Origin: Gammaproteobacteria bacterium
Lineage (GTDB): Bacteria; Pseudomonadota; Gammaproteobacteria; GCA-002705445; GCA-002716945
Direction: 5' to 3'
Length of the DNA: 42,092 nucleotides
Assembly: GCA_038142325.1 (NCBI GenBank)
Contig: JAYQJW010000008.1
Location: 1 to 42,092, forward strand
The notes under the pieces are model-generated. The model ran no database searches, was not told the DNA's origin, and worked only from the letters and a program-made list of their open reading frames with translations. Made by a program: the position numbers and the translations under genes. Shown here one piece after another: positions 1,370 through 40,006 of this stretch. Position 1 is the stretch's first letter, and each line of letters opens with the position of its first letter.

Positions 1370-1378
1370 TGCTATAAT
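1370..1378 (+). promoter_or_regulatory. Extended -10 sigma70 promoter (TGcTATAAT) for the riboswitch/small-ORF unit
   Basis: TG-n-TATAAT consensus; predicted start site ~1385 falls at the first base of riboswitch copy 1 (1386). Confidence 0.65.
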
Positions 1379-1385
1379 TAAAGTT

Positions 1386-1440
1386 GTCTTGATTTAGAAA
1401 TTACTCTACTTGCTGGGACATTAAACAAACGCTAAAGGAG
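1386..1440 (+). ncRNA. SAM-II (SAM_alpha-type) riboswitch, copy 1
   Basis: GUCU-UGAUUU...CUCU-AC-UUGC-U-GGGAC-AUUAAACAAAC-GCUAAA-GGAG. Shows P1 (GUCU/GGAC), the UGAUUU loop, P2b (UUGC pairing with GC(U)AA), an A-rich L3 and P2a (CUCU pairing with the GGAG Shine-Dalgarno). Matches the SAM-II H-type pseudoknot pattern. Confidence 0.85.
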
Positions 1441-1445
1441 GTACT

Positions 1446-1625
1446 ATCAACAATAATATTGAAATACTCAATGCTCTCGAGGAAAAAGTTAAAACACTAG
1501 AATGTAACTCATCTTATATGTCTTCATCTGTTAAAAATAGAAGAAGATTTTATGAAATTGAATATGCATTTATCAGTGTGATGCTTGAAGTAGAATCAGA
1601 GTACAAAAAAGAAGAATATAACTAG
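1446..1625 (+). CDS. Small hypothetical protein (59 codons) with ATC at the expected start position; not in the ORF track
   Basis: AAGGAGGT SD, then an open frame (I/M)NNNIEILNALEEKVKTLECNSSYMSSSVKNRRRFYEIEYAFISVMLEVESEYKKEEYN* that fills the space between the two riboswitches exactly. Confidence 0.6.
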   Translation: MNNNIEILNALEEKVKTLECNSSYMSSSVKNRRRFYEIEYAFISVMLEVESEYKKEEYN

Positions 1626-1679
1626 TCCTGATTTAGAAATTACTCTACTTGCTGGGACATTAAACAAACGCTAAAGGAG
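1625..1679 (+). ncRNA. SAM-II (SAM_alpha-type) riboswitch, copy 2
   Basis: 54/55 identical to 1386-1440. The single difference (T1389 vs C1628) changes a U-G pair to C-G in P1, preserving the structure. Ends in the SD 6 nt before ATG 1686. Confidence 0.87.
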
Positions 1680-1685
1680 AAGAAA

Positions 1686-1937
1686 ATGACATATGAAGAA
1701 AAACAAACACTTACATCAATGATAAACAAATCTATTAAATCTCTTAAGAAGCTAAGGCTTACCTATGGTGGTAACCCTACAAGCTTTGCATCAGCAATGT
1801 ATGCGCATCACTTGAGAGATGCTATTGACCATGAGTTGCATGAATTTCTGGATGTAAGGGTTGAGCTGATGTTAGATAAAATTAACGAAAAGATAAATCA
1901 TCTAGAGTCTATTGAAGAAAAAGTAGCCAATCTATAA
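1686..1937 (+). CDS. Small hypothetical helical protein (83 aa), riboswitch-preceded
   Basis: Strong SD (AAGGAG) plus ATG, followed by a hairpin; no recognisable family; heptad-like C-terminus (KINEKINHLESIEEKVANL). Confidence 0.8.
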   Translation: MTYEEKQTLTSMINKSIKSLKKLRLTYGGNPTSFASAMYAHHLRDAIDHELHEFLDVRVELMLDKINEKINHLESIEEKVANL

Positions 1938-1947
1938 TTTCATAAAG

Positions 1948-1977
1948 AGGTCATGGGGAAGAGGTTACTCATGACCT
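1948..1977. terminator. Hairpin between convergent genes, probable terminator
   Basis: AGGTCATGGG...CTCATGACCT inverted repeat between the 83-aa ORF and the nth stop codon; U-tract is weak. Confidence 0.5.
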
Positions 1978-2615
1978 TAGTTATTCAAGCTCTTTGGTTT
2001 ATATGGACAATACTGAGATATTTTGCAGTCATGGCATTTTGGTTTTCTAGCTATGCAAGTATACCTGCCTAATATTATTAACCAGTGATGGGCATGTTTT
2101 TTGAACTCATCAGGAATATTTTTAATTAATTTTTTCTCAACAATTTCAACGGTTTTACCTGGAGCTAAACCAAGTCGATTAGATACTCTGAAAACATGTG
2201 TATCAACACCTATGGTGTGTTGTCCAAAAGCATTGTTTAAAACAACATTTGCAGTTTTTCTGCCAACACCAGGAAGCTTCATTAATTCTTCTCTTGTTTG
2301 GGGTATTTTATTTTTGTACTGTTTCCAAATAATTTCGGATGTTGCAATGACATTAACGGCCTTTGCATTATAAAGCCCGATAGTTTTGATATATGTTTTT
2401 AGTTTATTAACTCCTAGTTTAAATAATTTCTCAGGCGAAGGAGCATCTTTGAAAAGTTTTTTGGTAGCAGCATTAACACTTTTATCTGTAGCTTGAGCGG
2501 AGAGAACAACAGCTATGAGTAATTGGAAATGACTTTTAAATGTTAATTCAGTTACCGGTTCAGGATCTTGATTTCTGAGTATCTCAAAGACTTTTACAAT
2601 TTTATCTTTATTCAT
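1977..2615 (-). CDS. nth: Endonuclease III
   Basis: LLIAVVLSAQATD, HhH motif LPGVGRKTANVVL, VDTHV, and 4Fe-4S motif CIARKPKCHDCKISQYC. Confidence 0.97.
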   Translation of the reverse strand: MNKDKIVKVFEILRNQDPEPVTELTFKSHFQLLIAVVLSAQATDKSVNAATKKLFKDAPSPEKLFKLGVNKLKTYIKTIGLYNAKAVNVIATSEIIWKQYKNKIPQTREELMKLPGVGRKTANVVLNNAFGQHTIGVDTHVFRVSNRLGLAPGKTVEIVEKKLIKNIPDEFKKHAHHWLIILGRYTCIARKPKCHDCKISQYCPYKPKSLNN

Positions 2616-3214
2616 ACTTTTTGATATTTTTATTTTTTTTAGATTCAGTTTCTAAGGCGTATTTAATATATTCCTGCATTTCACTATCTTCTAAAACTTT
2701 TTTTCTATTTTCTTCCTTATCCTTTTTGATACGGTCTAATCTATCTAATCTTTGGTAGTAGTTATTTTTAGAATCTTCTGATTGTTTTGATGGCCATACC
2801 CAATTTTTTTGATCAGCTTTTATCATCGACATGCAATTTACCGGACACTCGTCTATACAGAGTTCACAACCATTACATTGATCTTCTAATACTTTATGTA
2901 TCATATGCCTTGCACCAACAATTGCATCAACAGGACATACCTTAATACAAATTGTACAGCCGATACATTCTTCACGTACGATATCAGCAATTTCATGCAT
3001 CTTTCGTTTGTTCGTTTGGTTGATAATTATGATTAAGTAGTAAGGCTTTGATGTGATTTTGTGTTTGTGGACCACCTGGTTCACATTTATCGGTTTTTTC
3101 TTTCTTATTAATTATCGACTGTGCGTAACTTTTGCAATCAGGGTATTCACATTTTTTGCATTGTAACTGAGGCAATACCTCAATGATTTGATTAACTAAT
3201 TCTTTGTCATTCAT
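2608..3214 (-). CDS. rsxB: RnfB/RsxB-like ferredoxin, split by one frameshift near 3000
   Basis: N-part LPQLQCKKCEYPDC...CEPGG (FeS domain, ORF 2993-3214) and C-part CIGCTICIKVCPVDAI / CNGCELCIDECPVNC (ORF 2608-3084); usual position between metG and nth. Confidence 0.85.
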
Positions 3215-5195
3215 CTATGAAATTTTAGAACCTGGAGCAACATCTTTTTCGGGCTGTAGGATTATAATATCACCGTCATGTTGTGTTGCTAGCACCATTC
3301 CATTTGATACACCAAATTTCATTTTTCTAGGTTTAAGATTAGCAATAACCACAACTAATTTCCCAATAAGCTGTTCTGGAGTATAAGATTTTTTAATACC
3401 TGCAAAAATAGTTCTAGTTTCATCACCTAGATCAACTTCAAGCTCAAGAAGCTTTCTAGAGTCTTCAAGTTCTTTTGCATTGATGACCTTTGCAACACGC
3501 AAATCAACTTTAATAAAATCATCAATGGTAATTTTATCATCTTCTTTTTCTATTACGTCTTCAGTTTTATTTTCATCTTTCATCTTTTCAATACTCTCTT
3601 TATTAATTCTAGTGATTAATGGTTCAAATGCATTAATTTTATGTTCCTCTAAGCAATTGCCTATATTATTCCAATTGATTGGTTTGCTGTCTAAAATAGC
3701 TTCAACTTTAGCTGCTATTTCAGGTAATACAGGTTTCAAATATCCTATAATAATTTTAAAGACATTCACTCCATCAGAACAAATTTTTTGGACTTGTTCT
3801 TTGGTTGATTCGTCTTTGATTTTAATCCACGGTTTTTCTTCATCTAAATATTTATTTACTTCATCACTAATAGAAGAAATAATTCGCATGTTAGCTGCAT
3901 AGTTTCTTGCCTCATAGTTATCTTATAATTTCAGTTTTTTTAGATAAGGCAGACTCTATTAGATTTTTATTATCTACAGTTTTAGAAAGTTCATTTCCAA
4001 AGTCTTTATTAATAAACTTTGCACATCGACTACCAATATTAATAATTTTCCCTACAAGATCAGAATTAACACGCGCCATAAAGTCATCAAAATTCAAATC
4101 AATATCTTCAATTTTATTCGTAAGACGACTTGAGAAATAATATCTTAAATAATCTGGCTGTAAGTGATTGAGGTAAGTGCGGGCATTAAAAAAGGTACCA
4201 CGTGATTTAGACATTTTCTCACCGTCGATAGTTAAAAACCCGTGACAGAAAACTCCATCAGGTTTTCTAAAACCAGCACCTTCCAACATTGCTGGCCAAA
4301 ATAAACCATGGAAATATGCAATATCTTTTCCAATGAAATGATAAAGTTCAGTTTTAGAACCTTCAGACCAATCATCTAAATAGTTTTGATTATTTTTATC
4401 ACAGTAATTTTTATGTGATGCAATATACCCAATTGGCGCATCAAGCCATACATAAAAGAATTTATCTTTAAGTCCTGGTATCTCAAATCCAAAATATGGT
4501 TTGTCTCTGGTTATATCCCAATCAACTAATTCTCCTGATAACCATTCACTAAGTTTATTTTTTATTTCTTTTTGAATATTGTTTTCGCCCATCCATTTTT
4601 TAAGGAAATCTTGATATGAACTGAGCTTAAAAAATACATGCTCAGTAGTTTTAGTAATAGGTTTGGTATTACTTACTGTAGAGATCGGATTCTTAATTTC
4701 AGATGATGAATATGTTGCTCCACATTCTTCACAAGAATCACCATATTGGTCTTTTGCTCCACACTTAGGGCATTCGCCTTTAATAAATCTATCCGGAAGA
4801 AACATTTTAGCTTCATCATCGTAATACTGTTCAATTTCTTTACTGGCTATGTCTCCTTTATCTTTCAATGCAAGATAAATCTTTTCTGAAATCTCTCTAT
4901 TTTCATCAGAGTGAGTTGTATGAAAATTATCAAATTCAATTTGAAAATCTTTAAAATCTTTTACATGTTCCTCGTAAGTATTTTTGATTAATGCCTCTGG
5001 AGTAATTCCTAGTTCCTTAGCTTTAAGCATAATAGGCGTCCCATGAGAATCATCAGCACAGATATAGACACAATCATTTCCAGCCATCTTCTGACTTCTC
5101 ACCCAAATATCTGTTTGCAAGTACTCAACAAGGTGGCCTAAATGGATAGAACCATTCGCATAGGGCAGTGCACTTGTTACTATTATTCTTCTCAT
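3215..5195 (-). CDS. metG: Methionine--tRNA ligase, split by one frameshift near 3925 (likely sequence error)
   Basis: [15 protein letters not shown], Zn-knuckle [23 protein letters not shown]. The second ORF has the anticodon-binding domain and C-terminal tRNA-binding OB fold ([27 protein letters not shown]). Confidence 0.96.
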
Positions 5196-39933: not shown

Positions 39934-40006
39934 GGGGCTATAGCTCAGCTGGGAGAGCATCTGCTTTGCAAGCAGGAGGTCGTCGGTTCGATCCCGACTA
40001 GCTCCA
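39934..40006 (+). tRNA. tRNA-Ala(TGC)
   Basis: GGGGCTATAGCTCAGCTGGGAGAGC...TTTGCAA...GGTTCGATCCC..TAGCTCCA; G3-U70 identity pair; CCA not encoded. Confidence 0.98.

Follow-up and report, generated by a model that had tools for sequence, protein, structure and literature searches.

Two small open reading frames, each preceded by a SAM-II-like element, form a putative operon in a streamlined gammaproteobacterium and share the element with small genes of SAR11

Two cistrons, each behind its own candidate riboswitch

The window analyzed here is a 42,092-nucleotide (nt) stretch of DNA, contig C8 of a gammaproteobacterial genome (G000; 1.1 Mb in 9 contigs, 98% complete). At positions 1370 to 1978 it holds what appears to be a two-gene operon, in which each cistron would be under its own translational OFF switch of the SAM-II class of S-adenosylmethionine (SAM) riboswitches. 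From the sequence features described below, and from their conservation, we give this reading a probability of about three in four. The stretch runs from an extended -10 motif through a 57-nt element, a first small open reading frame (ORF1), a second copy of the element and a second open reading frame (ORF2) to a hairpin (Table 1). Its most conspicuous feature is a direct repeat of 65 nt (1376-1440 versus 1615-1679; 92% identity, spacing 239). Within it, a 51-nt core (1390-1440 and 1629-1679) is repeated with 0 mismatches, while 100 shuffles gave an expected number of matches of 0.00. These two are the only copies of the element in the whole 1.1-Mb genome. A preliminary description of the window, made from the letters alone, had reported near-identical elements, and the segments 1386-1440 and 1625-1679 are indeed identical at 54 of 55 positions; the sole difference, U1389 versus C1628, turns a U.G pair of P1 into C-G and so preserves the pairing. 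The UGAUUU stretch and the CUUGC/GC(U)AAAG and UCU/(A)GG pairings were likewise found as claimed, as was, behind the second element, an ORF of 83 amino acids (aa), which starts with ATG.

If both elements sense SAM, a simple mechanism can be proposed. At high SAM, the ligand would bind in a major-groove triplex of the GAUUU, CUUGC, and GCUAAAG strands and lock an H-type pseudoknot, whose 3' strand and short P2a would hold the Shine-Dalgarno sequence AAGGAG(G) and block ribosome loading. When SAM falls, the two pseudoknots would come apart and translation of both small proteins would follow. Since a translational switch affects only the adjacent cistron, one switch per cistron would be the economical arrangement for purely translational control of a two-cistron operon, which would explain the duplication. 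Two further layers of control are conceivable. ORF1 seems to begin at a near-cognate AUH codon (AUC here), and since such codons are discriminated against at initiation, its output is probably kept low. In addition, the stop codon of ORF1 (1623-1625) overlaps P1 of riboswitch 2, and the TAG of ORF1 relatives is always part of that helix. There, the terminating ribosome would lie across the third strand and P1 of switch 2, so that translation of ORF1 should unfold the switch and couple ORF2 to ORF1.

Relation of the elements to SAM-II

We place both elements in a divergent, translational subgroup of SAM-II that lies outside Rfam's operational threshold and whose ligand would be SAM. In a permissive Rfam scan of 1300-2000, the SAM-II model RF00521 (SAM_alpha) matched copy 1 at 18.9 bits and copy 2 at 18.1 bits, and the two are the top RF00521 matches of the whole genome. 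The cmscan alignment agrees at essentially all strongly conserved positions (uGAUUU, CUUGC, UUAAAcAA, and CGCUAAAG-AGG). The ligand-pocket motifs GAUUU, UUGC, and GCUAAAG align to upper-case consensus and are invariant in sets of 86 and 25 homologues. According to a structural comparison, SAM-II and SAM-V have in common a pseudoknot of the H type with a triplex in the major groove, in which the SAM adenine pairs with a U of the 3' strand, the sulfonium is flanked by a U:A.U triple, and an A two positions on holds the aminoacyl end; where the switch is translational, the Shine-Dalgarno sequence lies in a 2-bp P2a (Huang and Lilley 2018, PMC6061858). By our own mapping, GCUAAAGGAG(G), GAUUU, and CUUGC would offer counterparts for every one of these published features.

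Support for the fold comes from P1. In an alignment of 25 elements that includes divergent SAR11 copies, 6 of 6 P1 pairs have changed on both sides and 95.3% of cells are paired. This covariation score was reached by 0 of 500 shuffles, and slid registers drop to 31 to 66% paired. The divergent SAR11 variants of P1 are GUCC/GGAC, AUCCG/CGGAU, GUCCG/CGGAC, and GUCUG/CAGAC. In the larger set of 86 sequences, both-side changes occur in 2 of 6 pairs. Motif alignment and P1 covariation support the layout of a SAM-II pseudoknot whose 3' strand contains the Shine-Dalgarno sequence, as the preliminary description had proposed. The RNA is nearly invariant across genera, while the proteins related to ORF2 are only 25 to 32% identical between subgroups.

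The low RF00521 scores might in part reflect the model itself. Orthologous copies in related genera reach 31.8 bits (G029), 25.1 bits (G020), and 22.5 bits. R1, a custom covariance model built from six class-A copies of the element, also picks up (35 to 37 bits) an element of SAR11 whose end lies 30 nt ahead of an ORF with a homocysteine S-methyltransferase domain (PF02574, 1e-36). RF00521 gives this methionine-cycle-linked element only 28 to 29 bits, below its gathering score of 36. RF00521 therefore underscores SAM-II-like elements with a methionine-cycle context in these A+T-rich genomes, and the class-A copies can be aligned to such elements.

Table 1. Features of the stretch 1370-1978 (window coordinates)
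Feature	Position	Strand	Basis or remark
Extended -10, TGCTATAAT	1370-1378	+	Sequence reading; a transcript from here would begin at about P1
Riboswitch 1, putative SAM-II-class aptamer	1385-1441	+	RF00521 18.9 bits, E 0.088; R1 96.3 bits
Riboswitch 1, P1	1385-1390/1415-1420		
Riboswitch 1, third strand GAUUU	1391-1395		
Riboswitch 1, P2	1405-1413/1431-1441		
Riboswitch 1, Shine-Dalgarno AAGGAGG	1435-1441	+	Within 3' strand of P2
ORF1 (family F1), 59 codons + TAG stop	1446-1625	+	Conserved protein family; probable ATC start 4 nt after GGAGG
Riboswitch 2, putative intercistronic aptamer copy	1624-1680	+	RF00521 18.1 bits, E 0.15; R1 88.4 bits; core identical to copy 1
Riboswitch 2, P1	1624-1629/1654-1659		
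Riboswitch 2, P2	1644-1652/1670-1680		
Riboswitch 2, Shine-Dalgarno AAGGAG	1674-1679		
ORF2 (family F2), 83 aa, ATG start	1686-1937	+	Conserved family; predicted three-helix protein
11-bp hairpin between convergent ORF2 and nth	1947-1978	.	-16.7 kcal/mol, z -3.46

Conservation of the two-cassette order

We compared the locus with the 37 genomes of the window's order, which belong to one marine family. Strong R1 matches occur in 6 of the 37: two copies each in G000, G015, G020, and G029, one in G007, and at least one in G016, where a contig end cuts the locus. Weak matches (24 to 25 bits) in G006, G011, G013, and G025 were rejected as coding or unrelated sequence with the motifs missing. Among metagenome contigs, 12 loci carry a member of family F1, to which ORF1 belongs; all 12 have a second switch followed by an ORF of family F2, to which ORF2 belongs, and the first switch precedes F1 in 10 of the 10 whose contig reaches that far. 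The second cassette of G029 has another ORF instead, membrane-like and at least 98 aa long.

The surroundings of the operon are less stable than the operon. The autotransporter and nth genes that flank it here are neighbors only in the loci L151 and L152, and context is not conserved beyond close relatives; in G015, G029, L159, and L160 the cassette comes after tRNA-Ser(GGA). Within a genome, both copies of the element carry the same lineage states at three variable columns (A/C/gap in G000, G/C/C in G029), a pattern that fits gene conversion or recent duplication, the two origins suggested for the leader in the preliminary description.

Relatives of the locus also show additional features. 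R1 has a further weak match (21 to 22 bits) at L155:639-715 and L156:1071-1147, about 190 to 560 nt beyond the F2 ORF; it shows the motifs CUGGGA..UUUAAAA...AGCUAAAU but no GGAG and may be the decayed leader of a third cassette. At L159:3534-4959, L012:924-1349, and L154:1588-2469, the cassette adjoins a conserved 141- to 156-aa ORF that matches no Pfam family, a SAM-dependent methyltransferase of class I (Methyltransf_23, Methyltransf_11), or both, a neighborhood not seen in the window.

ORF1 and its non-AUG start

The preliminary description placed a 59-codon ORF behind the first element. The frame is open as described, but it has no ordinary start: at the Shine-Dalgarno-proximal position there is no ATG, GTG, or TTG, and the codon found there, 4 nt after GGAGG, is ATC. 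An ORF listing by ATG accordingly shows merely a 35-aa fragment of ORF1. The codon at the start position is ATC in G000 and L151 to L154, ATT in L156 to L161, G015, and G020, and ATA in G029; it is never ATG in F1, and AUC, AUU, or AUA stands at Shine-Dalgarno spacing in 4 of 4 F1 subgroups. Second cassettes have ATG at the same alignment columns. Conservation of the protein begins upstream of any methionine: L153 and L154 have no Met before codon 46 but retain the N-terminal LLNxLED...L(E/D)C block. Differences between G000 and L153 are enriched at third codon positions (6/3/10 at positions 1/2/3 in codons 1 to 25 and 4/1/12 in the rest), and the frame just upstream of ORF1 is closed by a TAA inside the UUAAAC of the switch. 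F1 as a whole is a conserved family of 10 clusters in 4 divergent subgroups, with identity down to 26 to 28%. Given the conserved N terminus, the closed upstream frame, and the position of the AUH codon, initiation at a non-AUG codon is the simplest reading of ORF1.

Public gene predictions treat this family differently. For the metagenome proteins P0017 and P0021, gene callers start F1 elsewhere or read through the riboswitch. P0021 (71 aa) is an F1 relative called from a TTG inside the riboswitch, where the in-frame TAA of UUAAAC is lost through a single change, and it shows how the non-AUG start leads to misannotation.

The two small proteins

As the preliminary description supposed, both proteins lack a recognizable family: neither ORF1 nor ORF2 has a Pfam, NCBIfam, PHROG, or PADLOC match. 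A profile search for F2 among 1.84 billion cluster representatives found 8 relatives. Members of the family are 79 to 83 aa long and have a conserved GG.PTSFA.AMY loop with invariant residues G28, G29, T32, S33, F34, M38, and Y39. AlphaFold2 predicts three helices for ORF2 (predicted local distance difference test score, pLDDT, 80.6). The structural comparison called for in the preliminary description gave no match, as Foldseek of the ORF2 model against the PDB returned none at E<=0.001 and generic helical hairpins only. The ESM Atlas held no usable match for ORF2 and one match, at 0.76, for ORF1. The predicted complex of ORF2 with ORF1 scored 0.01, which counts as evidence neither way. We also compared F2 with the SAR11 "GGPxGP" family F5, but hhalign gave a probability of 0.1 and no relation was detected. 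With low confidence, we suggest that the proteins could be effectors or regulators of a response to methyl or sulfur shortage.

Distribution in SAR11

The module is not confined to this genome and is widespread in SAR11. An IUPAC pattern for the 3' half of the element, applied to contigs from one genome per species, returned 99 stretches; the 80 loci analyzed among these hold 83 elements. By title, 73 of the 80 loci belong to Pelagibacter or Pelagibacteraceae, 2 to other Alphaproteobacteria, and 5 to Gammaproteobacteria. Downstream of 78 of the 83 elements is a classifiable ORF, in all cases of 46 to 79 aa: 64 belong to family F4 (55 to 61 aa), 4 to F6 (46 to 51 aa), 4 to F5 (61 to 65 aa), 3 to F1, and 2 to F2, and one is a variant resembling the F4 C terminus; the remaining 5 elements run off the contig or precede a very short frame. 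Overall, the downstream ORFs measure 46 to 99 aa and make up at least 6 families without a Pfam match. Foldseek of an F4 model found no match. F4 is also the family behind the single switch of G007, whose protein is 45 to 61% identical to SAR11 F4. SAR11 loci have one element each within 8 kb, and whole genomes can hold two, 7 to 9 kb apart. In a sample of 151 genomes of the SAR11 family (at least 80% complete), 24 have a match at E<=1e-5, some of them of the methyltransferase-linked type.

Across two bacterial classes, then, a stretch of about 50 nt is nearly invariant while flanks and ORFs diverge, and the same element precedes at least 6 unrelated families of small ORFs. This agrees well with the idea, put forward in the preliminary description, that the leader is a portable module. 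The patchy two-class distribution and the common F4 ORF suggest that switch-ORF units may have been exchanged horizontally between SAR11 and the gammaproteobacterial family. The pattern had 0 matches in viral contigs, blastn of the cassette against phage and plasmid collections gave no match, and none of 7 proteins had a family match in PHROG or PADLOC.

A wider proposal can be built on this distribution, though we hold it tentatively and think it somewhat more apt to fail than to stand. A single SAM-II subtype might define a SAM-responsive small-protein regulon in streamlined ocean bacteria, with at least 6 unrelated families of 46 to 99 aa on the same switch of about 57 nt. Its units would have been exchanged between SAR11 and a gammaproteobacterial family with 1-Mb genomes, where they are stacked in multicassette operons. 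The proteins would be effectors of a methyl- or sulfur-starvation programme, possibly that of two SAR11 genes that are induced under sulfur limitation.

Transcription and the ends of the operon

The stretch is flanked on one side by a partial autotransporter gene (3-1340; Pfam Autotransporter, 30.3 bits) and on the other by nth (1977-2615; HhH-GPD), which is convergent. The extended -10 reported in the preliminary description is present, but a consensus promoter scan of the + strand of the stretch made no call, as no -35 hexamer matches there. In 24 of 84 elements, versus 3.5 in shuffles, the corresponding pattern TGnTAnnnT lies in the 22 nt upstream of P1; it precedes first or single cassettes of the gammaproteobacterial family and is absent before second cassettes. 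Before switch 2 there is a -10-like TATAAC, which ends 2 nt from P1 and is too close for the aptamer to be in the transcript, so ORF2 is most likely cotranscribed with ORF1. Four metatranscriptome runs, one from each of four studies, have contigs that cover 1400-2007; these connect ORF1 with switch 2 (1411-1679) and switch 2 with ORF2 (1650-1967), as is compatible with a single transcript. Shares of 0.2 to 0.41 in 20 other runs were left out of account. The part of the autotransporter gene at 1000-1356 has no cover in the four RNA runs, which we do not count as a finding.

The hairpin that the preliminary description placed at the end of the operon folds strongly (1 of 200 shuffles folds as well) and overlaps the 3' end of nth. 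It is not a canonical intrinsic terminator, having no U-tract and 0 sites in a terminator scan of the + strand; it nonetheless probably marks the end of the operon.

Objections and alternative explanations

Several results weigh against the assignment to SAM-II and against the operon model as a whole. At gathering thresholds, Rfam finds rRNAs and tRNAs only in the whole window. The check by covariance models that the preliminary description recommended was negative at that level: RF00521 stays at 18.9 and 18.1 bits versus 36, the SAM-II long-loop model RF01726 matches copy 1 alone at 14.6 bits (E 7.7) versus 44, and SAM-V (RF01826; gathering score, 41 bits) has no row at E<=10 on 1300-2000. 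Weak RF00521 matches are moreover common, occurring at E<=10 in 14 of 14 unrelated control genomes and at E<=0.5 in 4 of 14, and RF00521 reaches E<=0.1 in only 1 of 5 SAR11 element loci (26.7 bits; 40-kb search) and in 0 of 3 divergent copies. The 25-element alignment (A10) was fitted to the model's P1, which favors the P1 covariation result. P2 (UCU.CUUGC with GC..AAG.AGG) is complementary in 95 to 99% of cells but invariant, without any compensatory change, so that covariation neither supports nor contradicts it, and in the 86-sequence set (A4) its 3' strand was fixed by the search pattern. Nested folding of the elements has no significant stability (z +1.03 and -0.32), as would be expected of a ligand-dependent pseudoknot. 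SAM-II is usually associated with methionine and SAM genes, and Pfam, NCBIfam, and other family searches recognize no such gene behind the elements in G000. We know of no ligand-binding experiment for this subtype in the literature searched. Finally, contigs from RNA libraries are no proof of transcription, since DNA can occur in such libraries.

Some of these objections are also the grounds for other explanations. The elements could descend from SAM-II but respond to S-adenosylhomocysteine, to an analogue of SAM, or to some other adenosyl or sulfonium compound, and so bring a different signal to the small-protein genes. Such a shift would suit a distinct subgroup below the Rfam threshold that never precedes a methionine or SAM gene (all 78 classed downstream ORFs are 46 to 79 aa and without a family) and that has a longer loop between the third strand and P2 than does the SAR11 element ahead of the methyltransferase gene. 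A change of specificity should, however, alter at least one part of the SAM-contacting core, to judge from the published contacts (PMC6061858), and GAUUU, CUUGC, and GCUAAAG are unchanged; we consider a shifted ligand quite unlikely. Very unlikely, in our judgment, is a leader that senses no metabolite at all and is instead bound by a protein or small RNA, or is a mobile repeat carrying promoter and Shine-Dalgarno sequence for cassette genes. Subthreshold scores, weak matches in control genomes, and the missing thermodynamic signal would all be accounted for in this way, as would the fact that the element travels with unrelated ORFs and adjoins tRNA genes in several loci. Yet P1 covaries, about 50 nt remain nearly invariant across two classes while flanks and ORFs diverge, and the elements can be aligned to SAM-II elements, including the one before a homocysteine methyltransferase gene. 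A dispersed repeat would also be hard to reconcile with only 2 copies per genome and with the absence of matches in the viral, phage, and plasmid collections.

The remaining alternative concerns ORF1, which may not be a gene, the first element then being a distant 5' switch or a decaying duplicate in a long leader of ORF2. The noncanonical codon at the Shine-Dalgarno sequence invites this view, and so do the public gene callers, which start elsewhere or read through the riboswitch (P0017, P0021). We find it unlikely, given that an open frame encodes a protein conserved, down to 28% identity, across 4 divergent subgroups, that the differences between G000 and L153 are enriched at third codon positions (6/3/10 and 4/1/12), and that the AUH codon sits exactly at the ATG position of second cassettes. 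An operon of two small genes, each with its own SAM-II-class translational switch, thus remains our preferred explanation.

Other SAM elements and further observations in the genome

Genes for metK and for a single Cys_Met_Meta_PP enzyme are present in G000, and no SAM-II-like element was called in the vicinity of either; no PF02574 domain was found in the assembly, which is 98% complete. Its only other element of the SAM-II/SAM-V type is on contig C7 at about 53850-54010 (- strand; L163:1500-1660). This is a tandem leader composed of a SAM-II-like aptamer, a terminator hairpin, and a SAM-V-like aptamer (34.9 bits; cut-off, 41), followed by a 120-aa ORF that has no Pfam family. The presence of this tandem leader shows that SAM switches of the type discussed here are in use in the lineage. 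None of the three G000 genes that follow such switches belongs to a recognizable family.

Similar tandem leaders are present in 18 other genomes of the 37-genome family. Three of these loci were scanned with Rfam, and 2 had SAM-V matches (29.1 and 36.4 bits). The pairing of SAM-II with SAM-V has been called unique to Pelagibacter (Smith et al. 2016, PMC5069961).

Elsewhere in the window (15486-42092), the rRNA operon is in two parts. A gap of about 22.7 kb, with a lower GC content (27 to 31% versus 32 to 35%), lies between the pair 16S (15486-17013) and tRNA-Ile (17086-17159) and the pair tRNA-Ala (39934-40006) and 23S (from 40524). The gap holds genes for cell surface polysaccharide, among them those for GDP-mannose 4,6-dehydratase, mannose-1-P guanylyltransferase, glycosyltransferases, and an AT3-SGNH acyltransferase, along with methyltransferases and a redoxin. 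SAR11 has a hypervariable island beside its rRNA genes, which this arrangement resembles. On the - strand, metG reads as two ORFs (3918-5195, 425 aa; 3215-3889, 224 aa), and an RnfB-like ferredoxin gene reads as two overlapping ORFs (2993-3214, 73 aa; 2608-3084, 158 aa); frameshifts, assembly errors, or truly split genes are possible in both cases.

Significance and comparison with known systems

Methionine and SAM genes are the textbook targets of SAM riboswitches. In the present case, a switch of the SAM-II type is attached only to tiny proteins that databases do not recognize, both in SAR11 and in a second streamlined lineage. SAR11 is among the most abundant bacteria of the sea, and sulfur limitation is a known ecological constraint on it; if the ligand is SAM, the ORFs would form a ready list of candidate effectors of methyl or sulfur limitation. 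The architecture is instructive in having one translational switch per cistron, with the intercistronic copy overlapped by the upstream stop codon, and a conserved non-AUG (AUH) start. On the methodological side, an entire A+T-rich subgroup escapes the SAM-II threshold of Rfam. The RNA class has been described before; the regulon, the architecture, and the occurrence in two bacterial classes apparently have not. Our literature search found no paper on SAM-II control of small ORFs in SAR11 or gammaproteobacteria, although supplementary alignments or lists of intergenic regions (Meyer 2009, Stav 2019, Huang and Lilley 2018) could already contain the element, and it found neither the two-cassette operon nor the AUH start described.

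A parallel in the start codon alone is infC, in which an AUU start serves autoregulation by initiation factor 3 (IF3). ORF1 resembles infC in having a conserved near-cognate AUH start behind a good Shine-Dalgarno sequence and differs in that AUC, AUU, and AUA are all used among its orthologues. A possible parallel for the cassette is found in "Ca. Pelagibacter ubique" HTCC1062, where the small genes SAR11_1163 and SAR11_1164, neither with a known function, lie side by side in a hypervariable region. Sulfur limitation induces both, and riboswitch control was supposed by the authors (Smith et al. 2016, PMC5069961); their leader of 445 nt is listed with no RNA assigned (Table 1 of PMC2704228). 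The likeness, two adjacent small genes, is one of description. According to these two papers, SAM-II occurs in "Ca. P. ubique" at bhmT and metX and SAM-V at bhmT, mmuM, and metY (PMC5069961, PMC2704228). For strain HIMB5, an unannotated SAM-II is noted, with no gene context in the accessible text (PMC6429828).

The closest comparison is with SAM-II itself (RF00521), especially its rare translational metX type. The H-type pseudoknot layout, the U-rich third strand, CUUGC, and GCUAAAG are alike, as is a short P2a that includes the Shine-Dalgarno sequence (PMC6061858). The elements described here differ in scoring 18 to 19 bits versus 36, in a weaker, A+U-rich P1, in a longer loop, and in preceding small ORFs without a Pfam match instead of methionine or SAM genes, with one copy being intercistronic. 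The tandem leader of "Ca. Pelagibacter ubique" bhmT has two aptamers before one gene, acting on transcription and then on translation (PMC5069961). It resembles our locus in its marine, streamlined host and in translational OFF switches that occlude the Shine-Dalgarno sequence, and the window's genome and its relatives also carry a tandem leader of the bhmT type. At the stretch studied here, by contrast, there is no SAM-V match, and each aptamer has its own cistron.

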